64,000 bases of DNA, taken from positions 1-64,000 of the IMG/VR virus record IMGVR_UViG_3300028603_000018, one strand, 5' to 3'. Position 1 is the first letter of the stretch. The number at the start of each line of letters is the position of its first letter. Under the pieces are notes generated by a model, which was not told the origin of the DNA, made no database searches, and was given only the letters and a program-made list of their open reading frames with translations. The translations under genes and the position numbers were made by a program. Origin of the DNA: a virus. Its lineage: Duplodnaviria; Caudoviricetes. Positions 5,455-62,583 of this stretch are shown piece by piece.

Positions 5455-5657
5455 AAGCAACATAATAGGAGATCCTTTTGGGATCTCCTATTTATGACCT
5501 TTTTTCTTTTGGCAAACTATTAAGTCTTTTTTCAGTCATTTAAATGCTATGTCAACTGAAAGGAAAATATAAAAAAACGAGTTGACTCATTTCTATGTAA
5601 AGAATGTTTAAGCATTAGTTTAATACCAGTAACAATAACTACACTTTGGAGTAAGAA

Positions 5658-8600
5658 GTGATTGAAAAAATTATTAAGCGTGATGGACGAGAAGAAAAGT
5701 TCGATGCTGAGAAAATTGTAAGGTGGGCTGAATGGGCCTCCCCAATGGAATCTATGAAACGACAGTGGCCTGTTGTAGTAACAAAGGTGGCCTCTCGTTT
5801 AGATCGTATTGTAACGAGTAAGAAGCTCCAGGAAGAGTTAATTGAAGGGTTCTTAGATCTAGATAACTATAGTGCTTATTTAGTCGCTGGACGCCTGTAT
5901 TCAGCTCACCTACGTAAAGAGATTTTTGGTAGTAATGAAGTACCTACTATTAAAGAAGTGCAAACTCGATTAATTCAAGATGGATTATTACGTGATCTTG
6001 GTTATAGTGATCAAGAGTACCAAATGCTTGAAGAGATTATTGATCATGAACGAGACTTTGATGTATTGCATTTCTCTTTACACCATATTCGACTCAAGTA
6101 CGCATTACGTAATAAAGTAAGTAAAAAAGAGTATGAAACTCAGCAGTTTGTTTACATGCGTATGGCAATGACTGTTAATGAGTTTAAAGAACCTATTGAG
6201 AGGATTGCTTTAGTTAAGAGCCTCTATGATAAGCTCTCTCAAAAGAAACTCTCTTTACCTACACCTAACTATGTAAACTTTGGCACTTACTTACGTAGCT
6301 ATGCTTCTTGCAACCTCTATATGACTGACGACAATTTAGAGAGTTTAGCTATTGGTGATCATATTGCTTATCGTCAAACAGCAGCTAGTGCAGGTAATGG
6401 TTTTAACATCATGACTCGTTCAGCCGATGATCCTATTCGTAATGGATTATTCCCTCATCAAGGAAAACTCCCTTACTATGCTGCTGTAGGTAAAGCTATT
6501 AAAGCTAACTTACAAAATGGTCGAGGTGGTGCAGGTAATGCTTTCTTCCCAGCATTTGATCCTGAAGCTAATAAGATCTTAGGCTTACGTGATCCGCGCT
6601 CTACTGGTGTGGCAAGTAATAGAGATCTCCATTACACTTTTATGGATAATCCTTTCTTTGCTAAGAAAGTGGCAGCTGGAGAGAAAGTCTTTGTATGGAA
6701 CTGCTATACTGCTCCTAAGCTCAATGAGTTATTCTATTCTGATGACCTAAAAGGTTTTATTGAAGAATATAATCGTTTAGAAAATGATCCTAGTTTCCAT
6801 AAAGAATATATTGATACTCGTGAACTCTTCTATAGGTTGAAAGACGCAGAGTTTGGTAGTGGTACGTATTATGAAATGGACGCTTATGAAGTCAATCGCC
6901 ATACTCCATTAAAAGAACCTATTCATAGTAGTAATTTGTGCGTAGCACCAGAAACGCAATTACTGACTGATCAAGGTCATGTTACAATCCGTGATAAAGC
7001 TGGTCAGACAGTTACTATCTGGAACGGTAAAGAATGGTCTGAAGTAGAAGTCGTTAAGACAGGTGAGAACCAGAAGTTACTACGCGTTGTATTATCTGAC
7101 GGTAAAGATTTAACATGCACCCCGTATCACAAGTGGTACGTGATGGATAGTTACCAAGGTAAAGAGCGCGAGGTCCGTACTCATGAGCTTGAAGAAGGAA
7201 TGAAGCTTATTAAGCTAGAGACTCCTGTCATTGAAGGTGACTGGGAATTTAAAAGAGCTTATGTTAATGGCTTCTATACAGGTGACGGAACTCAACTTTA
7301 TAATGGTACAGGAAAAATTTACTTATATGGTGAAAAGGCGGCACTTGCTCCTCTGTTTAATCATGATAAGGAATGGCGTAAAAACGGAAACAGATTAGAA
7401 TCCGAGTTCCGTGATCTGTATCCTAAATATACTGTACCGACAGTGAAGTATACTGTAGCTAGTCGTTTAGAATGGCTCGCGGGATGGCTAGATGCAGATG
7501 GCTGCATCTATCGAAATGGAGACAATGAGTCGATTACTGCTTCTTCTACAGATAAAGAATTTCTTAAAGAAGTACAGTTAATGCTTCAAACTCTAGGCAT
7601 TGAATCTAAAGTAACGCTTCTGTATGAAGCTGGAATAAAAAGACTTCCCGCTAATGATGGAACTGGAATCTATAAGGATTTCTATTGCTTAGCCACTTAT
7701 CGACTTCTTATTTCTAGTTGGAATAGTCAGAAGCTATTAGAGCTAGGATTAAAATTACATCGACTAGTGATAGAAAAACGCAAAGTTCAGCGTAGTGCTT
7801 CAGGATTCGTTTATGTGAAGAATGTATTAGATGTTGGTCGAGTAGATGATACTTACTGCGTAAAAGAACCTAAGCGTAATAGAGCAGTCTTCAATGGTAT
7901 TCTTACAGGTCAATGCGTAGAAATCACTGAGCACACAGCTCCTTACTATGACATGAAGGATCTTTATTCTGAAGAAGATCATGGTAGAGGTGAGATTGCG
8001 TTATGTAATCTTGGTGCTGTTAACCTATCTAAGATTGAATCAGATAAAGATTACTTCAACATCATGTATGAAGCTTTGAAAGTTATTGATTATACAATCG
8101 ATCATGCTGATTACACCTTCCCTCACTTAAGCTTTACTTCTAAGCAACGTCGATATGCTGCTGTTGGTATTATGGACTTTGCTCATGTCATGGCTGAATC
8201 CCACTACTCTTATTCAACAGAAGAGGGCAGGCAGTTCATGCACGAAGTAGCGGAACGTCATATGTACTTTGCTATTAAAGCCTCTCTTGCTATTAGTAAA
8301 GAACGTGGTGTAGCTCCTTGGATTCATAAGACTAAATGGGTAGACGGCTGGACACCTGTCAAAACGTATAACCGAGGTCTTGATAGTATCCAAGACTTTA
8401 AATACCGGTATGACTGGGAAGCTCTATCTGAAGAGATTAAAGCAAATGGTGGTATTGCTCATAGTCTGTTAGTTGCTTATATGCCTGGGGAAGCTTCTAG
8501 TAAAGCAGTAGGTGCTGCTAACTCTATTTATCCTGTTAGACAGTTAACGCTAGTTAAAACAGATAATAAGATCACAACTCGCTGGGCTGCACCTAATGGT

Positions 8601-8903
8601 GATAATGAGTTCTATAAATACGAATCTGCTTGGGACATCCCTACGAAAGATCTGATTATCATGTATGCTATCTTCCAGAAGTTTACTGATCAGTCTATTA
8701 GTGCAGATAGGTATAAGCGTGTCCCTGAAGGTAGTACGATTAATACCGATGAATTAATTGAAGAATATCTCCTGGCTAAGAAGTTAGGTGTTAAAACCTT
8801 CTATTACCAAAACTCTAACACAGCAAGTAATGTCGATATTAATGTGGTCGAGCGTATTACTGATGCTGTTGATGAAGAGGTTTGTGAAGGTTGTACAATG
8901 TGA
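5658..8903 (+). CDS. nrdA: Class Ia ribonucleotide reductase alpha subunit, intein-containing
   Basis: N-terminal ATP cone (IIKRDGREEKFD), LPTP, ASC, SSNL|C-V-E active site split by an intein, KTFYY, C-terminal CEGC. Confidence 0.96.
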   Translation: MIEKIIKRDGREEKFDAEKIVRWAEWASPMESMKRQWPVVVTKVASRLDRIVTSKKLQEELIEGFLDLDNYSAYLVAGRLYSAHLRKEIFGSNEVPTIKEVQTRLIQDGLLRDLGYSDQEYQMLEEIIDHERDFDVLHFSLHHIRLKYALRNKVSKKEYETQQFVYMRMAMTVNEFKEPIERIALVKSLYDKLSQKKLSLPTPNYVNFGTYLRSYASCNLYMTDDNLESLAIGDHIAYRQTAASAGNGFNIMTRSADDPIRNGLFPHQGKLPYYAAVGKAIKANLQNGRGGAGNAFFPAFDPEANKILGLRDPRSTGVASNRDLHYTFMDNPFFAKKVAAGEKVFVWNCYTAPKLNELFYSDDLKGFIEEYNRLENDPSFHKEYIDTRELFYRLKDAEFGSGTYYEMDAYEVNRHTPLKEPIHSSNLCVAPETQLLTDQGHVTIRDKAGQTVTIWNGKEWSEVEVVKTGENQKLLRVVLSDGKDLTCTPYHKWYVMDSYQGKEREVRTHELEEGMKLIKLETPVIEGDWEFKRAYVNGFYTGDGTQLYNGTGKIYLYGEKAALAPLFNHDKEWRKNGNRLESEFRDLYPKYTVPTVKYTVASRLEWLAGWLDADGCIYRNGDNESITASSTDKEFLKEVQLMLQTLGIESKVTLLYEAGIKRLPANDGTGIYKDFYCLATYRLLISSWNSQKLLELGLKLHRLVIEKRKVQRSASGFVYVKNVLDVGRVDDTYCVKEPKRNRAVFNGILTGQCVEITEHTAPYYDMKDLYSEEDHGRGEIALCNLGAVNLSKIESDKDYFNIMYEALKVIDYTIDHADYTFPHLSFTSKQRRYAAVGIMDFAHVMAESHYSYSTEEGRQFMHEVAERHMYFAIKASLAISKERGVAPWIHKTKWVDGWTPVKTYNRGLDSIQDFKYRYDWEALSEEIKANGGIAHSLLVAYMPGEASSKAVGAANSIYPVRQLTLVKTDNKITTRWAAPNGDNEFYKYESAWDIPTKDLIIMYAIFQKFTDQSISADRYKRVPEGSTINTDELIEEYLLAKKLGVKTFYYQNSNTASNVDINVVERITDAVDEEVCEGCTM
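6939..7913 (+). mobile_element. Intein (325 aa) with LAGLIDADG homing endonuclease, ending in Gln
   Basis: Starts CVAPETQLLT; block B CTPYHKW; endonuclease motifs NGFYTGDG and LAGWLDADG; ends DTYCVKEP...FNGILTGQ before the catalytic Cys. Confidence 0.93.
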
Positions 8904-11859: not shown

Positions 11860-11976
11860 GTAGAAGGATGTCATAGAGAGGAGTCCTTTTGGACTCCTCT
11901 TTTATGCTGTATATTAGAATATCTCAATTACATATAACTATTTTGAAACCACTACAATAGTTAAAAGGATTTACCT

Positions 11977-13608: not shown

Positions 13609-13674
13609 CTGCAATTTAAAAGAGTAGGAATAAACCTACTCTTTTATTTCTCTCATTGAAAAAAGGAAACTATC

Positions 13675-15447: not shown

Positions 15448-15530
15448 GGCATAAATAGGGAGTCCTTCGGGACTCCCGTTTATGTTCTTTATTCTTTTTT
15501 TATTATAACAAAAACTATAACAGAATAAAG

Positions 15531-15563
15531 TGTATTCTAGATTATTTCAGAAACATATAACTA
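15531..15563 (+). promoter_or_regulatory. Putative early promoter, duplicated at 62176-62208
   Basis: tgtattctagattatttcagaaacatataacta is identical at both sites. Confidence 0.75.
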
Positions 15564-15658
15564 AGATGAATAGCAATAGAGAATGTTGCTAAGAGTGCTT
15601 CTAGAGAAGCTACGACTTCTCTAGAAGCGTGTGAGTAACCTATCTTCAGGAGGTCATT

Positions 15659-16123: not shown

Positions 16124-16256
16124 TACCTATATAGGGAGTCCTTTAATTAGGACTCCCTATTTATGTCTTTCTTTTTTCTTTTTGTTATAGTAAAGAAATC
16201 TCAACTATATATCACTATACTGATATCTATTCTATTAATCATTAGTAAACTTAACA

Positions 16257-27434: not shown

Positions 27435-27499
27435 TAAAGAGATACAGATTGGAGATGTTCTATCCAATCTGTATCTCTTATACTTATCTTTTTTGTAAT

Positions 27500-27572
27500 T
27501 TAAATTATCTCAATTACATATAACTAGTCTGAATAGAAGTTTTATACTTCAATAAGTATTTTAACTCAGAGG
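27500..27572 (+). promoter_or_regulatory. Putative early promoter plus leader, duplicated at about 61690-61752
   Basis: caattacatataactagtYtgaatagaagttttatacttc..agtattttaactcaRagg shared by both sites. Confidence 0.75.
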
Positions 27573-27581
27573 AATTCAATC

Positions 27582-28148
27582 ATGAAAGTATTACCTAATC
27601 ATTTTAACTTTAATCCGACTATTATTATTCATGGACGTATTATCAACGGTTGTCAAGACTTCACACTGGAAGAAGCTCCAGCTATCTTGAAAAAATATAA
27701 TGTGTCAGACAGCGTCTGGCAAGAAGTTTTAGATGTTTATTCTCCTACATCGACAGATGAGGAGATTACGTCATTTATTAATGTTGGAGATTGGGAAGTT
27801 TGTTCTGTTATAGCTAAGCACGGTAGTGATATCCATCGCGATATTCTAGTTAATAATAGAGGAGTTTTTGTTCGCGTAGCAGTAGCCCAGTATGGAAATG
27901 ATGATCACAGGGATATTCTTGTCAACGACACGCGTGCTAAGGTTCGTGAAGTAATAGCTAAATATGGTAACGACAGCCATCGAGATATCCTCATTACTGA
28001 TGAGGATAAACATGTACGTGTGATGGTGGTTCGCTATGGTAACGACAACCACCGTCGTATCTTAATCAATGATACAGACCCGTATGTTAGTGGTATAGCA
28101 GCTATTTACATTAATTACGAATATATCAATAACTTAAAGGAGAAGTAA
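27582..28148 (+). CDS. Alpha-solenoid (HEAT/LRV-like) repeat protein
   Basis: About four 24-aa tandem repeats V(R)..V(I)AKYGND.HRDILVND. Confidence 0.8.
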   Translation: MKVLPNHFNFNPTIIIHGRIINGCQDFTLEEAPAILKKYNVSDSVWQEVLDVYSPTSTDEEITSFINVGDWEVCSVIAKHGSDIHRDILVNNRGVFVRVAVAQYGNDDHRDILVNDTRAKVREVIAKYGNDSHRDILITDEDKHVRVMVVRYGNDNHRRILINDTDPYVSGIAAIYINYEYINNLKEK

Positions 28149-28324
28149 ATGAAAGTTAGCAATCATGACATCCTCGTTACTGTTATTCGTAAAAAAATAA
28201 CGAAAAGGATGAAGAAGTGACTGAACACATCTCTTTGGCAGACATTCCTGAAGACATGTCTGACTACACTGTTCGGCTAGCAGTAAAAGACGCTCTTCTG
28301 CAAGCAGGCTTTAAACTAGTCTAA
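28149..28324 (+). pseudogene. Small gene interrupted by a frameshift at A7 (28191-28197)
   Basis: MKVSNHDILVTVIRKK continues in the -1 frame as NNEKDEEVTEHISLADIPED...AGFKLV. Confidence 0.45.
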
Positions 28325-28422
28325 CACAAAGGGAAAGGGAGTAAACTCTCTTTCCTATTTTGTTATAGTAAAAAAAGCATAAATAGGAGTCCAAAAGGAC
28401 TCCTCTAACAAAGGATAGTATC

Positions 28423-28806
28423 ATGACAAAAATATTTATCACACACCACATACCTGATCCTGATACTGGTGTTACTCCATATCAAGAGAATTCCAAACGA
28501 GAGCACAAGTATCCTATTGGCTCTGTAGTAAAGTGTTTGGAATACGATGCAACTACAGACACTTACAAAGAGACTAAAACAAGTCTCCGTTTGTATGTGG
28601 TTGATCACACCCGAGATTGCGACCAAGAACCTCTTTATACGTTATCACACAACACGCCAGAAGAGTTTAAGGAAAAAGAAGCTACTTTAAATAACTGCAT
28701 TGTTCAATTTACGAATGGTCTCTCGACGACTTTCAAAGGCATTATTCTGAACCACCTTCTGGGACTTTCAGGCTACTCTGAAGATAGTCTCGAACTGTGT
28801 GAATAA
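28423..28806 (+). CDS. Phage protein of unknown function
   Basis: AAAGGA RBS; HKYPIGSVV, RLYVVDHTRDCD.EPLY. Confidence 0.8.
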   Translation: MTKIFITHHIPDPDTGVTPYQENSKREHKYPIGSVVKCLEYDATTDTYKETKTSLRLYVVDHTRDCDQEPLYTLSHNTPEEFKEKEATLNNCIVQFTNGLSTTFKGIILNHLLGLSGYSEDSLELCE

Positions 28807-28834
28807 ATAATCAATCATTGTAAGGAACAACATC

Positions 28835-29551
28835 ATGAGTAACATGTACTACATCCAAACATTCAAAATTGAGTATTTCAATAAAAATACTACCAAACCC
28901 ATGACGTTGAGTTCTATTGTCTCTGATGACTACATGGGATCTTTCGAATTCGAAAATGGTAGTGTTCCAAGAAGTATTCAGTATCTGAAAGACAATGAAG
29001 TTAAAATCTTCACCCACTCAGTCATCCCAAACAAAGAAAAAGAACCTGTCACCTTCTATGTCATTACCAGTGATGAAGGTTTCGAAGCTTTCAAGAAAGG
29101 GATTGATATTCATCTGGATGGTCACAGTACAGGAATGAAAGCTAAAGAGCATACATATCTCTACGATAAGTTTGTATCGAGTTTTTACAAAGAAAAACCT
29201 AGTCCTTATCATCCTGATATGTGGTTGGATGTAACCATGAATGTGAGTCGATATAACACAGAAAATGGCTACTCTATCATGTTCAGTGATAAACTGGATC
29301 TGATTCGACGTCTTTATCTTTACCTCAAACAAACTCACAAAACCTTCAATGCTGAAGAAGTTCGAATTGGTGACATGGTTTATGTCTACAACGATAACCG
29401 ACCAAAGAAGGTGTGTGGGTTGAATGAGGGCAATTCTATTAGTCTGAAGGCTCGTTTTGGTAAAGCTCAGAAATACCATCCTGATGACCTTTGGTCGAAA
29501 GAAGACCTCTTGAAGCTACCAGTTGAAGTTCAACAGTACTTTGAACTGTAA
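28835..29551 (+). CDS. Hypothetical protein
   Basis: AAGGA RBS, 238 aa. Confidence 0.8.
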   Translation: MSNMYYIQTFKIEYFNKNTTKPMTLSSIVSDDYMGSFEFENGSVPRSIQYLKDNEVKIFTHSVIPNKEKEPVTFYVITSDEGFEAFKKGIDIHLDGHSTGMKAKEHTYLYDKFVSSFYKEKPSPYHPDMWLDVTMNVSRYNTENGYSIMFSDKLDLIRRLYLYLKQTHKTFNAEEVRIGDMVYVYNDNRPKKVCGLNEGNSISLKARFGKAQKYHPDDLWSKEDLLKLPVEVQQYFEL

Positions 29552-29688
29552 ACCACTTAGAGTTATACTCTCTCAGATATTTCGAATTCAATTATTACGA
29601 CGATGCATTCGATAAGTTCTACGAATTGATCAGCAAACTTTAATACATTCAATTCAATCATCCCATTCTTTAAATAAAGGAAAGTATT

Positions 29689-30147
29689 ATGGTTACAAAC
29701 TCAAACACAACAATTAAAGGTAGTGTACTTAAAGTAATTGGTGTCTTATTGACCTCAGTTTTTGTAATTAGCGGTTGTGGTAGGGATGACGCTAAAATTG
29801 CCTCAGCCAACCTCAGTAAGGCTGCTGATAATTTTGAAGTCATGCGGCGTACCGTGTTCTATAATGGTATCACTGGTGAATACATGCTTTCTATTGAAGG
29901 ACTTTGTTCATTAGGTAAAGCTCAAGAAACTAATGCAGTCACTGTTACATGTAAGACAAGTCCTCGACAATATAAAAAGCACTTCCTAGGACTTTCAGAT
30001 AACGTGACCTATTTCTCCGAACAGATGGACAGTGTTAATGTTAACGTCCATCACTACCGCGTTGTATTCAAACCGCAAACCATTCTTCCATCACTAGATA
30101 TTCGAGCTAGTACGTCTGATGCTGTTGATGTCTTCCGAGGGCATTAA
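29689..30147 (+). CDS. Phage lipoprotein
   Basis: Signal peptide with ISGC lipobox; SKAADNFEV.RR.VFYNGITG..LSIEGLCS, HFLGLSDNVTY. Confidence 0.85.
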   Translation: MVTNSNTTIKGSVLKVIGVLLTSVFVISGCGRDDAKIASANLSKAADNFEVMRRTVFYNGITGEYMLSIEGLCSLGKAQETNAVTVTCKTSPRQYKKHFLGLSDNVTYFSEQMDSVNVNVHHYRVVFKPQTILPSLDIRASTSDAVDVFRGH

Positions 30148-30161
30148 CCCCTTCTTACTAA

Positions 30162-30572
30162 ATGGAAAAAGAAATGAAACGAGATTTTACAGAAGACCAA
30201 TTGCGTGAAGCTTTGAACATTATTAAAGAAGATCCTTTCTTGAGGATTGACATCGGTTTTAACGAAGAGGGTAAGATGGTTACTGAACTTCGTATTCGAT
30301 ACATGCCTACCGCAGGTGGAGTACAGTTTAGTGTCAAAGGAGTCTCTTGGAATGGAGAGCATAGCGGTATTTACTTCCATAGTGAGGACGATGCATTCAA
30401 CTATATCAATGACAAAGCTATTGGCCAAATCATTGAAAGGTGTGACAGACTCAACCGCTTCCGTCAAAACTTAGGAAGAGAGAAGAAGTACGATCATTCT
30501 GCCATCATTCTCGAAGTGGTTACAGAACCATGGCAGGCTACCTCACTAGTATCAGGAGAGAAAAATGAGTAA
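30162..30572 (+). CDS. Hypothetical protein
   Basis: 136 aa, in operon. Confidence 0.65.
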   Translation: MEKEMKRDFTEDQLREALNIIKEDPFLRIDIGFNEEGKMVTELRIRYMPTAGGVQFSVKGVSWNGEHSGIYFHSEDDAFNYINDKAIGQIIERCDRLNRFRQNLGREKKYDHSAIILEVVTEPWQATSLVSGEKNE

Positions 30573-30804
30573 GATTAAAGCCAGCAGTCAAATAAGGATT
30601 GTTAAGATCCATGCTTCTCGTGGATATGGTGATGGTCATTGGGAAGTTATTGAGGAAGTGAATAGCAGTACCTACAAACTTCGCTGTGTCGATACTTCAG
30701 AAGTTATTTATATCTTCAAAGCACATTGTTTCGAAGATACAGGTACAAGGAAACTAACTCTTCAGAAACGACGAGAATATACTGAAGGAATTGGTAAGCG
30801 TTAA
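30565..30804 (+). CDS. Hypothetical protein
   Basis: AGGAG RBS, overlaps previous stop. Confidence 0.65.
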   Translation: MSKIKASSQIRIVKIHASRGYGDGHWEVIEEVNSSTYKLRCVDTSEVIYIFKAHCFEDTGTRKLTLQKRREYTEGIGKR

Positions 30805-30994
30805 ATTTCCAATAAATATAAACATTCTTAATAAAAGGAATAATTCAATATGGCTAACGTTATTCAATATCTGCATAAAAAGCATGATAAAGAAAAGATG
30901 GCATAAATAGGGAGTCCAAAAGGACTCCCTATGGGTGTGGTGAGTACTAGCAATACTCACCATTTTTACAACAACTCACGAAAAGGAGAAATCC

Positions 30995-31144
30995 ATGAGT
31001 GATACTACAGAAATGCGCTCGCACCGCATTTCATCATCACTGGCTTTTAATAGTCCAACGATGATGTTGGTCAAAGCGATTGAGGTGGGTAAATACCAAC
31101 CTCAACCAAGACCTACCAGTATTATTCTAGTTGAAGACGAATAA
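30995..31144 (+). CDS. Micro-ORF (49 aa), paralog of 32149..32310, not in ORF track
   Basis: AAGGAG RBS; MSDTTEMRSHRISSSLAFNSPTMMLVKAIEVGKYQPQPRPTSIILVEDE. Confidence 0.7.
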   Translation: MSDTTEMRSHRISSSLAFNSPTMMLVKAIEVGKYQPQPRPTSIILVEDE

Positions 31145-31263
31145 GTTTTCATTAGAATAATCAAGGAGAGAATAAAATATTCTCTCCTGTATGATAAAAG
31201 GTTATAATAATAAAATATTTATATTAGATGTTTTATTATTATACACCATAAAGGAAAGTTATT

Positions 31264-31734
31264 GTGAGTCAACTCATCTGGCGAATCGAATTCAATGGCG
31301 AAGGTCCTTTCGTCAATGAAGAGTCATTTACGAAAATCCAGAATACCATCTTAAAAGAAGTAGGTGGGGCTGATCGTTTCCATACTACCTTTCTCAACCT
31401 TTACACCCAGCGAGTAGACCCTCCTTACATACGGAAAGCATTTAAACATCTTTTTGACAAAGAAACTGCTCTCCCTATAGATAAGGATGTTAAATTTGGC
31501 TTTCCTTCTAAAGAAGTCATGGAGGATAGCCTTTGTATTAACCTAGAGGAGTATCCATATAGAAGCATCTACTATACCCAGTTCGCTACGCTATTTAGAG
31601 AACTAAAAGGTTTTTGTGTTAAAGTCTATTTAGCTAACCCCCTAGCCCAAGCAACTGAGGAAATAGCTTTTAAATTCTCAGAAGCTCTACTAGTAGAGAC
31701 GGCTAGTACTATCGAGCAATACAATCAGCTTTAA
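31264..31734 (+). CDS. Hypothetical protein
   Basis: AAAGGA RBS before GTG; WRIE..GEGPF and FGF.S motifs. Confidence 0.75.
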   Translation: MSQLIWRIEFNGEGPFVNEESFTKIQNTILKEVGGADRFHTTFLNLYTQRVDPPYIRKAFKHLFDKETALPIDKDVKFGFPSKEVMEDSLCINLEEYPYRSIYYTQFATLFRELKGFCVKVYLANPLAQATEEIAFKFSEALLVETASTIEQYNQL

Positions 31735-31852
31735 AAATAATGTATTAGCTAATATAACGTGCTAGCACATATTGTAAGAAGAGTCTTTCCAAACTTAATA
31801 TATACAAAAAGAGAACCTCTGTGTTCTTTTTTATGCCGTAAAGGAGTTAGTC

Positions 31853-32047
31853 ATGTACATTGTTGAATTCACCACCAGGACCATTGAGATTGAAACAACA
31901 TCTGTAACAGTTGGTAGTAAACGCTCTCTAACTAATCTCATTATTATCCTAGAGAATAGTAAAAGTGTTCTTCATTGGAAGATTAACGGACACCGTCCTT
32001 CAGATATAGGACTCAGTAACGATTCTTTCAGTAAGGAAAAAGTATGA
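31853..32047 (+). CDS. Hypothetical protein
   Basis: AAGGAG RBS. Confidence 0.7.
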   Translation: MYIVEFTTRTIEIETTSVTVGSKRSLTNLIIILENSKSVLHWKINGHRPSDIGLSNDSFSKEKV

Positions 32048-32148
32048 ATTAATTAAGGCATAAATAGGAGGTCCAAAAGGACCCCCTAAGGATGATGAGT
32101 GCACCAACACTCATCGTTTTTACTAACTACTCACCAGGAGATTCTTCT

Positions 32149-32310
32149 ATGAGTAATAGTGCTACGATACGCGAGTATCGAATTACACCTGCATTAGGAC
32201 TATTAAGTCCAGTACAGATGTTAAATGCTGCTAAAGATAAAGGTTTATATAAACCCCAATCTACACAGCAAGGTGTGACATTATCTAACCTTCGCAAGCA
32301 GTTTAGATAA
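32149..32310 (+). CDS. Micro-ORF (53 aa), paralog of 30995..31144
   Basis: AGGAG RBS before the ATG at 32149; MSNSATIREYRITPALGLLSPVQMLNAAKDKGLYKPQ... Confidence 0.7.
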   Translation: MSNSATIREYRITPALGLLSPVQMLNAAKDKGLYKPQSTQQGVTLSNLRKQFR

Positions 32311-32587
32311 GACATACAATAAAAGAGAGGCCACCACCTCTCTTTTACTACCACCTATTAAATAGAGAATGGAGAAGTTCTCACATATAATGTTAATATT
32401 GCTTTAAATTTATATACTTCTCTTAAAGAGAAACAAATCCTATCTTTCTTTTTTTCTTTGTTACAAGTAAAAATATCTATTACAATAAGAAGCAAAGCAA
32501 ACAAATCTTATGTCAATCTTCTATAATTATTAAATAACATCTTATTAATTAAAACATGAAAGTTTTAAAAAATAGTACGAGGTCTCT

Positions 32588-33286
32588 ATGCGTGAGATAT
32601 TGATAGCAGGAGGAATTGAGACTGGACTTGATCCTTACTGGAATAATGTGTCTCTGTTATTACCTTTATCTGGCGATGACGGATCTAAACCTCTTTTAGA
32701 TGCAACAGGAAAAGCTATTACTTACCATGGTTCAGCACAGATAGTAGAGACTCCTTCTAAATTTGGAGAGGGTAGTCTTTCTGCATTAACAGCTTCAGAC
32801 TATCTATCCTTTCAAGGCGGGTCTCCTTTTAATTTCAGTAATAATGATTTCACTATTGAATTACAGTTATATGTAAGCTCATCTTCAACAGGTTCTATTC
32901 AAGCCATATATGAGGATCGTGTCAATGCAGCGACCGATCTTGTCTGTGCACTTACTTATACTTCTAATAAACTAACTATGTGGATGTGGATCTATGGTGT
33001 TCATGTTACAGCAGTTGGTTCAGGTCTTACCGTACCTCCTAATACATTTAATCACTTAGTCTGGTGTCGATCAGGTAATACTATTAGAACATTTATAAAT
33101 GGTGAAATTAATCAAACCTCCACTTATACAGGAACAGCAGGTGGTGGACCAACAGTGCGTTTATTAGGAAGTACTTATAGTCAGCCAGTAAATGCTTATG
33201 CTAATGATATTAGAGTAACTAAAGGTATAGCTCGCTATATAAGTTCTTTTGATCCTCCAACAGAACCTTTCCCAATTAATAGTTAA
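32588..33286 (+). CDS. LamG/concanavalin A-like domain protein, probable virion accessory protein
   Basis: DPYWNNVSLLL, SKFG, DFTIE, NHLVWCRSG.TIRTFING, DIRVTKGIARY..SFDPPTEPF. Confidence 0.88.
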   Translation: MREILIAGGIETGLDPYWNNVSLLLPLSGDDGSKPLLDATGKAITYHGSAQIVETPSKFGEGSLSALTASDYLSFQGGSPFNFSNNDFTIELQLYVSSSSTGSIQAIYEDRVNAATDLVCALTYTSNKLTMWMWIYGVHVTAVGSGLTVPPNTFNHLVWCRSGNTIRTFINGEINQTSTYTGTAGGGPTVRLLGSTYSQPVNAYANDIRVTKGIARYISSFDPPTEPFPINS

Positions 33287-46601: not shown

Positions 46602-47299
46602 TGAAACTCTCAACTAGTGTAAGAAGAGATATCCTTCAATGGTTAGATAACCTTCCCAAAGAAGAACTTTCTTTGAAAGCTATTGATCCTAACACAAACA
46701 CTTATTCAACTGAGAAGACTTTTAGATATCAAGTGGGTAAGGAACAATACTGTATTGATGTTAAACAACACGTCAGTACAATAGGTGTAAAGTTTGGTTT
46801 TAATCTCCCAGCCATTTATACAACTACTTTCTCTTTCTTTAAAATTAAAGATAAGGAAGTAAAGGGTGAATTTTCTTGGGAGCCTATTCATGTAGAGCGC
46901 AGGTTCGTAAAGGAAGTAGATTGGATTAAAGATGTACTTCAAGCTATTAGGGAGGGTAGTTTAGAAACCTCTCTAATGACTGACAACGAACCTGTTATTA
47001 ATGAGATCACAGAGAAAGCTAGGACGTTTCTTAAGGTAGAGCATTTATTAAATCTCGTTAAGGAACATTCAATTGCTTCTTTTAGTAAATATGAAACAGA
47101 GGAAGGGATTACTTTCACAGTAAAACTAGAAGATAAAGAAATTAAGTTTATCACAAACTACGATAACTTACATCTTCTCAATCTAGTAACTGATGAGAAT
47201 AATATCTTTGATATTGAATCTGTTTCCGATACAGTAGAAGTAACTATTTTATTACTTACTTATTTAGGTAAGCTAGTAAAAAAGGAAAAGACGGCATAA
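46601..47299 (+). CDS. Hypothetical protein
   Basis: GAGGA RBS; its stop codon lies within the GGCATAA arm of a palindromic element. Confidence 0.75.
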   Translation: MKLSTSVRRDILQWLDNLPKEELSLKAIDPNTNTYSTEKTFRYQVGKEQYCIDVKQHVSTIGVKFGFNLPAIYTTTFSFFKIKDKEVKGEFSWEPIHVERRFVKEVDWIKDVLQAIREGSLETSLMTDNEPVINEITEKARTFLKVEHLLNLVKEHSIASFSKYETEEGITFTVKLEDKEIKFITNYDNLHLLNLVTDENNIFDIESVSDTVEVTILLLTYLGKLVKKEKTA

Positions 47300-47331
47300 A
47301 TAGGGAGATTATTAGATCTCCCATTTATGCC
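47293..47331. repeat. GGCATA...TATGCC palindromic element (full consensus copy)
   Basis: ggcataaatagggagat-tattag-atctcccatttatgcc. Confidence 0.8.
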
Positions 47332-47405
47332 TTTGAATTAGGTGTTCTCTTACTCACTGCAATGAGTAAGAGAACGAACATTATCTTTCATATATACATT
47401 AAAAA

Positions 47406-47720
47406 ATGAAAAAAATGAATACACTACTCAATAACGTTAATTACAAACCTGTTATCAATTGGAATAAAAGTCATCCAGTCACTACTGAAGTGGATGCTCA
47501 TACTCAAAAATCAACAGGTCATTCCCACTGGGTAATCTCTATCAAGAAAAGTGATGTCGATAGTTTTTTCCGATTTATCGGCGACCAAACTGATAAGAGG
47601 AATATATCTACACCAGATCTACTAAACCCGTCCGATGAGGTCAAAGTATACCTTAAAGATCTCAACAAGTTACCTAGAGAGGAGCTTGTAAATAGGACTA
47701 GACATCTTACTTACACATGA
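47406..47720 (+). CDS. Hypothetical protein (no clear RBS)
   Basis: 104-aa ORF only. Confidence 0.4.
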   Translation: MKKMNTLLNNVNYKPVINWNKSHPVTTEVDAHTQKSTGHSHWVISIKKSDVDSFFRFIGDQTDKRNISTPDLLNPSDEVKVYLKDLNKLPREELVNRTRHLTYT

Positions 47721-55538: not shown

Positions 55539-55578
55539 GGCATAGATAGGGAGAGCAATTAGCTCTCCCATTTATGCC
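55539..55578. repeat. GGCATA...TATGCC palindromic element after capsid gene
   Basis: ggcatagatagggagagc-aatta-gctctcccatttatgcc. Confidence 0.8.
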
Positions 55579-55792
55579 GTACTTTTATTATTTAAGATAT
55601 TTTCACATACACATCACTATCTAGTAACTTAGGTAGAAGTGCCTTTAATTATCTATTAATTCGTTCTTTAATTAAACTCCTAGTATTTGTAGTAATCGTT
55701 CTTTAGTAGTTAGGGAGAGTACTTTCGGGAGAAGTATTCGTGCCAGCCCAGTAGTGTAATAGATAATTAAGAAGATCAATAATTTTTATAAA

Positions 55793-61600: not shown

Positions 61601-61794
61601 GATATAAAATTAGGAGTTCTTCGGAACTCCTAATTATGCCTCTATTTTTTTTTTTATTATAACAGAGTAGAATGTAATCTAGAATTAATCAATTACATAT
61701 AACTAGTTTGAATAGAAGTTTTATACTTCGTTGAGTATTTTAACTCAAAGGAAAAATCATCATTCCCTCTTATTTAATCATTAGGATATTTATC

Positions 61795-62106: not shown

Positions 62107-62257
62107 GTAGATGAAGGAATTAGGATTTCATAAAAAAGGATTCTAATTCCTCTCTCTCTTTCTATTAGTTATTTCTGTATTCTAGATTATTTCAGAAACA
62201 TATAACTAATTTGAATAGTAATACTAATACATCATTTCAAGTACAAAGGAATCTATC

Positions 62258-62461: not shown

Positions 62462-62583
62462 AACACTAAAAGGAGTCCCTTAATCAGGACTCCTTTTACT
62501 ACCTTTCTTTTTTTTTCTTTTTGTTGTAGTAAAAAGTAAGGCATAAATAGAGGACCAAATAGATCCTCTATTTATAGTGCTAC

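Follow-up and report, generated by a model that had tools for sequence, protein, structure and literature searches.

We analyzed a 64,000-nucleotide stretch of viral DNA (positions 1 to 64,000 of the IMG/VR record IMGVR_UViG_3300028603_000018; hereafter, the window), which forms the first 64 kb of a contig that is, judged by its genes, an uncultured phiKZ-like jumbo phage. The window holds two small cassettes, A (30900-31144) and B (32057-32310), each of which joins a structured leader to a micro-open reading frame (micro-ORF); the encoded peptides are referred to as pA and pB. For the parts of these leaders, the best interpretation is that the phage's own termination signals stand 5' of a duplicated small gene. 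We put the probability at about 50% that A and B are copies of an insulated cassette for a small gene, whose 5' region contains a terminator or attenuator and whose expression would be insulated and low; everything we say on function is inferred. Coordinates refer to the window, and features lie on the plus strand unless otherwise noted.

Duplicated leaders and micro-ORFs

The common layout that an earlier note on this DNA had described for the two cassettes was recovered, with every element found at its coordinates. In both, a first hairpin (H1) is followed by a second hairpin (H2), a run of five T residues (T5), a conserved spacer, a Shine-Dalgarno sequence (SD) and a micro-ORF starting with ATGAGT, and both cassettes are closed by a 3' hairpin with an 11-bp stem found by folding (31164-31188 for A and 32320-32347 for B, neither assigned to a strand). 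The sequence GGCATAAATAGG starts the cassettes at 30900 and 32057. The copies lie in tandem, 1157 bp apart, and are the only two in the 4.1-Mb assembly. Because the genes flanking A and B are unrelated to each other, the duplicated unit comprises the leader and the ORF and starts at H1.

The two leaders are 72% identical, and their similarity is beyond chance. When the leaders without H1 were aligned globally, A against B scored 18, a value reached by none of 5000 shuffles (0/5000; -11.7 +/- 4.4), and the maximum score against 207 real upstream regions of the phage was 3. Selection on the leader is supported because this identity persists while the synonymous sites of the ORFs are saturated (proportion of synonymous differences, pS, 0.70).

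Folding both leaders, a check proposed in the earlier note, recovered H1, H2 and a start-region hairpin, H3. The folds were more stable than those of shuffled sequences (Z-scores of -5.7 for A and -7.6 for B), and H1 and H2 are the dominant folds, with pairing probabilities of 0.97-1.0 in the ensemble with or without 80 nt of upstream sequence. In a MAFFT alignment of the leaders, the H2 arms fell out of register. Read from the loop outwards, the arms carry two double compensatory changes (A-U to G-C and G-C to A-U), as had been claimed, together with two one-sided, wobble-compatible changes that keep the pairing, so that 0 of 10 pairs are broken.

H2 is a selected hairpin with a U5 tail. H2-A with its T5 occupies 30937-30967 (core 30939-30946/30954-30961, loop CTAGCAA, T5 at 30963-30967) and has 8-10 bp, a 7-nt loop, a folding energy of -13.2 kcal/mol and U5 one nucleotide past the stem. 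H2-B with its T5 occupies 32088-32121 (core 32094-32101/32108-32115, loop CACCAA, T5 at 32117-32121) and has 8-14 bp, a 6-nt loop and -16.4 kcal/mol, followed by U5. Both match a descriptor of intrinsic terminators that specifies a G+C-containing stem of 5-14 bp, a loop of 3-8 nt and a U-tract of at least 4-5 within 2 nt.

We scanned the genome for H2-like sites (stem of at least 7 bp, at least three G-C pairs, plus T5). Sites fitting the stem of at least 7 bp with T5 numbered 16 in 244 kb, nine of them no more than 80 nt after the end of a same-strand gene; H2-B itself starts 46 nt past the stop of a 64-aa ORF. H2 with T5 was found in these two leaders only, and the distance from the start of the T-run to the ATG is exactly 32 nt in both. 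Other terminators directly before a gene's SD in this phage are located at 13622 and 28331.

H1 and a phage-wide family of terminator-type hairpins

H1 of both leaders is a member of the phage's generic terminator hairpin family. H1-A (30900-30932) consists of a GGCATAA 5' tail and an 11-bp stem (30907-30917/30922-30932) with an AAAA loop. H1-B (32057-32088) has the 5' tail GGCATAAA and a stem-loop at 32065-32088, with nine pairs, one A.C mismatch and one compensatory pair relative to A. Both carry the GG[AG]G...C[CT]CC core and the GGCATAAATAGG arm. No 10-mer is more frequent in the phage than CATAAATAGG, which occurs in 31 copies, every one in a hairpin directly after a gene end, and a relaxed census yielded approximately 49 intergenic hairpins with GG[AG]G...C[CT]CC cores and the outer arms GCATAAA and TTTATGC. 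A T-rich TTTATG tail is present on the sense strand in 28 of the 32 hairpins between co-directional genes (16 right-only and 12 two-tailed), and 11 of the 15 hairpins between convergent genes are two-tailed, with the tail on both strands. The same arms surround different cores in metagenomic relatives that share only ~40% protein identity. Based on this distribution, the H1 family looks like a sequence-specific terminator signal for the phage RNA polymerases (RNAPs). Going beyond the earlier note, H1 thus appears as a generic terminator-type hairpin, and H2 with T5 resembles an intrinsic terminator.

The copies in the two leaders have no T-rich TTTATGCC 3' tail on the plus strand. There, the bases behind the H1 stem read ATGGGTG in A and AAGGATG in B, and the T-rich tail is on the minus strand only. 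A third tail-less copy with the same CCAAAAGG loop lies at 28377-28404, 20 nt upstream of the start of the gene 28423-28806 and without an H2. These three are the sole copies between co-directional genes in the census that keep the 5' arm but are tail-less on the plus strand; read on the minus strand, they look canonical.

Further members of the H1 family within the window include those at 1610-1650, 2680-2720, 5461-5500, 15448-15490, 16131-16170, 47293-47335 and 55539-55580. At 47293-47380, a full two-tailed H1 is followed after 10 nt by a 13-bp hairpin (GTTCTCTTACTCA...TGAGTAAGAGAAC), before the gene 47406-47720. These tandem hairpins were considered as a relative of H2 and set aside: they share the ACTCA pentamer only, with the arms swapped, which is probably a coincidence. 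Outside the phage, the H1 pattern gave four matches in IMG/VR that were not enriched within their records and 35 matches in GTDB genomes, none of them related to the phage by tblastx. In metagenomes, five contigs with the pattern are true distant relatives (~40% amino acid identity), in other genome regions.

Micro-ORFs and their peptides

The micro-ORFs probably are coding and under purifying selection, as judged from reading frame, codon use and paralogy. pA (30995-31144) would be a hydrophilic ORFan micro-protein of 49 aa, and pB (32149-32310) a basic, hydrophilic ORFan of 53 aa and a paralog of pA. The peptide alignment given in the earlier note was borne out: pA and pB align without gaps over 45 residues, 16 of which are identical (BLASTP E-value 2e-9). 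Between the ORFs, the proportion of nonsynonymous differences (pN) is 0.41 and pS is 0.70, giving a ratio of nonsynonymous to synonymous substitution rates (dN/dS) of ~0.28. Codon log-odds per codon are 0.34 for pA and 0.48 for pB, compared with a mean of 0.48 (standard deviation = 0.17) for real 70-150-aa phage genes and -0.05 (90th percentile = 0.17) for antisense-ORF controls. At both ORFs, the other two frames are closed by stops.

The grand average of hydropathy is -0.34 for pA and -0.49 for pB, and the best 19-aa Kyte-Doolittle windows score 0.77 and 0.70; the usual threshold for a membrane helix on this scale is ~1.6. The net charge is -1 for pA and +6 for pB. AlphaFold predicted, with low confidence, one short helix at residues 21-31 and coil for the remainder.

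A word-indexed search of 5.8 billion clustered proteins returned the query itself only, and an exhaustive HMMER profile search of 1.84 billion representatives returned pA, pB and two long repeat proteins only. The latter (one cadherin and one unclassified tandem-repeat protein) matched in multiple stretches and were rejected as spurious. Nothing significant was found by tblastn of the peptides against 50,697 phage records, and nothing usable in Pfam, PHROGs, PADLOC, PDB or the ESM Atlas. On these sequence comparisons, pA and pB form a two-member family of ORFan micro-proteins.

Three other reading frames near the micro-ORFs were considered and rejected. A 23-aa upstream ORF in A (30931-31002), whose TGA overlaps the start of pA, and an in-frame ATG-ATG extension in B (32092) are not conserved between the copies, lack a usable SD and lie inside H2. 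An 18-aa ORF at 30851-30907 has a codon score of -0.60.

Proposed termination upstream of the micro-ORFs

In the reading we prefer, H2 with U5, aided by H1, would act as an intrinsic-type terminator or attenuator directly 5' of the micro-ORF, and because of this action transcription arriving from upstream genes would mostly be stopped at H2. The stop would leave transcripts with a structured 3' end or, should transcription begin near H1, release a short RNA of ~65-68 nt. Synthesis of the micro-protein would depend entirely on read-through or on a private start site, and a local hairpin, strong in B but weak in A, would further mask the ribosome-binding site. Overall, expression would be insulated and low, without a two-state, riboswitch-like toggle.

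The short RNA could itself be the product. Under this alternative, H1, H2 and the U-tail (30900-30967 and 32057-32121; ~65-68 nt) would constitute a small structured RNA released by termination, and the ORF would be a secondary read-through product. Such an RNA would have two stable hairpins and a U-tail, both hairpins are conserved while the ORF has diverged, and in phiKZ the 5' untranslated region (5'UTR) terminators give rise to abundant RNAs of ~71 nt and 141 nt (PMC10914365). However, a start site could not be recognized upstream of H1, which is itself a generic element and not a specific RNA, Rfam has no match, and the ORFs are clearly under protein-level selection. We consider this alternative improbable.

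Several points weigh against termination as a full account of the leaders. Termination at H2 is predicted and the promoter is likewise inferred, and the stopping of the phage's multisubunit RNAPs at H2 is an assumption taken over from phiKZ. The terminator was duplicated with the ORF and not with the unrelated upstream genes, and an insulated 'moron' carrying a promoter of its own would explain this no less well than read-through. The role of H1 on the plus strand in the three tail-less copies is uncertain because the sense-strand T-rich tail that marks family members is missing. Finally, the spacer is identical at 12 of 13 positions although dS is saturated; this conservation far exceeds what a plain terminator needs, and the terminator model leaves it unexplained. 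Because neither the strong conservation of this 12-13-nt spacer nor the unusual orientation of the three tail-less H1 copies is accounted for, we keep a private promoter, a factor-binding site and antisense termination as minority readings.

The conserved spacer and candidate promoters

The consensus after H2 is TTTTTAC(T)AAC(A/T)ACTCAC followed by the SD, which is AAGGAG in A and AGGAG in B. Spacer A, ACAACAACTCAC, lies at 30968-30979 with a second ACTCA at 30974-30978, and spacer B, ACTAACTACTCAC, at 32122-32134 with a second ACTCA at 32129-32133. TTTTAC-type words are not enriched upstream of starts.

One possible explanation for this conservation is a promoter. In a moron-like cassette, H1 and H2 would merely insulate, and TTTTTAC(N)AACWACTCAC would be the promoter or start region for a middle- or late-class phage RNAP. 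The spacer is conserved far above neutral expectation, the duplicated unit starts at H1 and leaves out the unrelated upstream genes, and promoters often directly follow terminator hairpins in this phage. In addition, the middle and late promoters of phiKZ-like phages are short and not predictable (review PMC7598289), and a private start site for pA and pB is possible for this reason. On the other side, the motif is private to the two leaders and stands before no other gene in the 244-kb genome, which would make a promoter class of two members, and the 5'UTR would be only ~15-20 nt. The spacer is also unlike the early motif of the phage, the late TATG of phiKZ and the late AACA-N6-T-A/G of AR9. 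We regard this promoter reading as unlikely.

Known late-promoter types were tried and rejected. The T4-type late motif TATAAATA belongs to the wrong phage type, and its match falls within a palindromic hairpin. The phiKZ late TATG follows H1 in A but is replaced by TAAG in B, and the AR9 motif does not fit.

The phage has an early-type promoter motif of ~30 nt, TCTAGAwTwATyTCAATTACATATMACTA (...CAATTACATATMACTA), in ~27 copies on the contig, 45-75 nt before starts. This motif is absent from 30800-31000 and 32000-32150. Copies within the window lie at 2740-2785, 11900-11940, 15520-15565, 27485-27530, 61660-61705 and 62165-62210, with ~20 more on the contig. Behind several copies, near-identical 5'UTRs stand before different genes, for example at 27516 and 61695 or at 15553 and 62198. 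A weaker variant, CTCACATATAATG, at 32380-32395 comes just after cassette B, with the LamG-domain gene 32588-33286 starting ~200 nt further on. Directly behind terminator hairpins, at 16170-16195, 28355-28375 and 62505-62535, there is a repeated element made of a T-run and then GTTATAGTAAA (or ATTATAACA); it is inverted at 15495-15515 and 61650-61670 and may contribute to the terminator or represent a second class of promoter.

Another possibility is that the spacer forms part of an operator. The four pentamers TGAGT..ACTCA....ACTCA....TGAGT, 13-22 nt apart, would bind a regulator as DNA or RNA, possibly the autoregulating micro-protein. A and B both preserve the symmetry and spacings of the pentamers (14/19/22 nt and 13/20/21 nt, respectively), an operator would account for the otherwise puzzling conservation of the spacer, and pB is basic with a net charge of +6. 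However, the net charge of pA is -1, no DNA- or RNA-binding family was matched in Pfam, PDB or the ESM Atlas, and the predicted model, of low confidence, has one short helix. The H2 arms already account for two of the four pentamers, and the Met-Ser codons for a third. We judge such an operator to be quite improbable.

The start region and the proposed switch

A third hairpin folds around the start region in both copies. H3-A (30976-31002) is a weak two-tier hairpin around the SD AAGGAG (30983-30988) and the start codon, with outer pairs at probabilities of 0.57-0.65 and an inner GGA/UCC helix at 0.9. H3-B (32128-32155) is a strong two-tier hairpin with pair probabilities of 0.83-1.0, in which UACUCA pairs with UGAGUA of the start region and the SD AGGAG (32136-32140) pairs with CUUCU. 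In A as in B, the SD core is almost always base-paired (unpaired probability at most 0.05), so restricted expression of the micro-ORFs is plausible. The ensemble energy of the initiation region is -14.9 kcal/mol in B, at the 1.6th percentile of 248 phage genes, and -7.1 kcal/mol in A, an ordinary value at the 27th percentile. The burial of the SD that the earlier note had proposed thus stands for the pairing of the SD core in both copies, whereas an exceptional start hairpin is confined to B.

The same note had proposed that the second ACUCA switches partners, pairing either with the 5' arm of H2, which frees the SD, or with the UGAGU at the start codon, which buries it, or else that the leader belongs to a type I toxin-like peptide under antisense control. 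In favor of a toggle, A and B both retain the pentamers and both have a paired SD core, and few initiation regions of the phage are as structured as that of H3-B. The alternative pairing speaks against it, since pairing of the second ACUCA with the H2 5' arm costs +9.2 kcal/mol in A and +18.5 kcal/mol in B relative to the minimum free energy structure, and H2 is transcribed, and hence formed, first. H3-A is ordinary, and ACTCAC is not enriched in the genome (129 copies vs ~119 expected). Because H1 and H2 pair with such high probability, no competing fold is visible in the thermodynamic ensemble, and neither leader has an alternative antiterminator or anti-sequestor fold of comparable stability.

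The antisense variant would be suited by the three tail-less H1 copies, which are oriented as canonical minus-strand terminators and could provide the end of an antisense RNA. On the minus strand near either locus, however, no early-promoter motif was found, and both 3' hairpins look like minus-strand terminators that would block entry from downstream. Matches to sigma70-like promoters near the loci were not above shuffles. The likeness to type I toxins did not hold up either: because both peptides are hydrophilic, have a single short predicted helix and lack hydrophobic or transmembrane segments, they do not resemble type I toxins. Taken with its antisense and toxin variants, the switch appears very improbable.

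Searches for relatives of the leaders agree in finding none. A scan of 28000-33000 against Rfam 15 with E-values up to 10 gave sub-threshold chance matches only, the best at 27 bits against a gathering score of 79. The leader pattern TTTTTACN{0,1}AACNACTCAC had 44 matches in IMG/VR, which we attribute to chance because none (0 of 44) has a hairpin or ORF context.

A more specific circuit can also be imagined. The leaders may be the private cis-regulatory RNA of a new family of jumbo-phage micro-proteins, in which a phage or host factor recognizing the AAC-W-ACUCAC spacer or H1 would select either termination at H2 or read-through followed by translation; in another version, the minus-oriented H1 copies would end antisense RNAs that span the entire leader and the start codon. 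This is distinctly unlikely in our view. If true, it would mean a dedicated control circuit, acting after initiation, in a phage whose transcription takes place within a nucleus-like compartment of its own.

Phage context and source

The contig, C90, is 244,062 bp long with 35.8% GC and sits in a 4.13-Mb metagenome-assembled genome (MAG) from a landfill, in which the remaining large contigs have ~61% GC. It encodes a 743-aa phiKZ-type major capsid protein (phrog_3231), a split multisubunit-RNAP-like protein (phrog_2943), a phiKZ-type virion protein (phrog_3004), NrdAB and helicases. The nearest cultured capsids, at 31-45% identity, are those of phiKZ-like phages of Burkholderia, Ralstonia and Xanthomonas. 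These capsid, RNAP and virion matches, together with the GC contrast of 35.8% to 61%, are the reason for assigning the contig to a phiKZ-like jumbo phage that was binned into a bacterial MAG. No tRNA or tmRNA genes were found. A second public assembly contains the identical sequence (100% identity across 6.2 kb), and the stretch is also present in two landfill DNA metagenomes, the only data sets listed for it, with no RNA data set among them.

The gene between the two cassettes encodes 156 aa and is also an ORFan. Both copies are set in an ORFan-rich accessory region of the jumbo phage, and the duplication is ancient.

The MAG holds more low-GC (31-40%) contigs, namely C39 (145 kb, 37%), C87 (87 kb, 40%), C38, C57, C75 and others. 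Because these many further low-GC contigs stand beside the jumbo-phage contig, the bin is mixed, with another phage or organism inside; no similarity to leaders A or B was found in them. Elsewhere in the window, the NrdA-like large subunit at 5658-8903 is 1081 aa long, and its PHROG matches are split between residues 1-458 and 662-1080. The ~200 residues in the middle have no match and may be an intein or inserted domain.

Comparison with known systems

The cassettes open no new kind of mechanism. They define a two-member ORFan micro-protein family that is probably under purifying selection, and the leader (~95 nt, with a natural pair of compensatory variants) offers a compact test object for the response of jumbo-phage RNAPs to hairpin and U-tract signals.

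Like the leaders of type I toxin-antitoxin systems (hok/sok, tisB/istR, ldr/rdl), those of A and B place a small ORF behind a structured leader with a base-paired SD. They differ in that the peptides are hydrophilic and lack a membrane helix, and that no antisense gene, competitive alternative fold or family match was found.

The promoter-early stem-loop (PeSL) cassettes of T4-type phages (Arbiol et al. 2010, PMC2839356; Comeau et al. 2014, PMC4122927) resemble the arrangement in that small ORFan genes of hyperplastic regions are flanked by repeated regulatory stem-loop modules, which could promote duplication and reshuffling through recombination. PeSL cassettes belong to another phage lineage with another transcription machinery, the early-promoter motif is absent from leaders A and B, and here the cargo itself is paralogous.

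A conserved intrinsic terminator of phiKZ, a stem-loop followed by TTAT, is present in 61 terminators (PMC10914365). The H1 family is likewise a sequence-conserved stem-loop (GG[AG]G core) with (T)TTATGC on the sense strand at gene ends. It is distinguished by its sequence, GCATAAATAGGRG...CYCCTATTTATGC, and by the tail for the minus strand only in H1-A, H1-B and the 28377 copy.

The nearest experimentally described analogue would be the 5'UTR terminators of phiKZ. In that phage, 42 terminators lie in 5'UTRs and give read-through mRNAs or abundant short RNAs (PMC10914365); T102 before PHIKZ221 yields an RNA of ~71 nt, and T131 before PHIKZ302 is another 5'UTR terminator (Putzeys et al. 2024, PMC10914365). 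The two cases share a jumbo phage with its own multisubunit RNAPs and a stable hairpin directly before a gene, and by analogy a short RNA (~71 nt in phiKZ and possibly ~65-68 nt here) with a minority of read-through mRNA would be expected. In contrast to phiKZ, the predicted element described here has no sequence similarity to the phiKZ terminators, is duplicated with a paralogous micro-ORF and is preceded by a tail-less generic hairpin. If the termination reading holds, the two cassettes would be a further example, outside Pseudomonas phages, of phiKZ-like genes directly behind terminators, and would support the view that phiKZ-like phages tune the expression of accessory genes by conditional termination.

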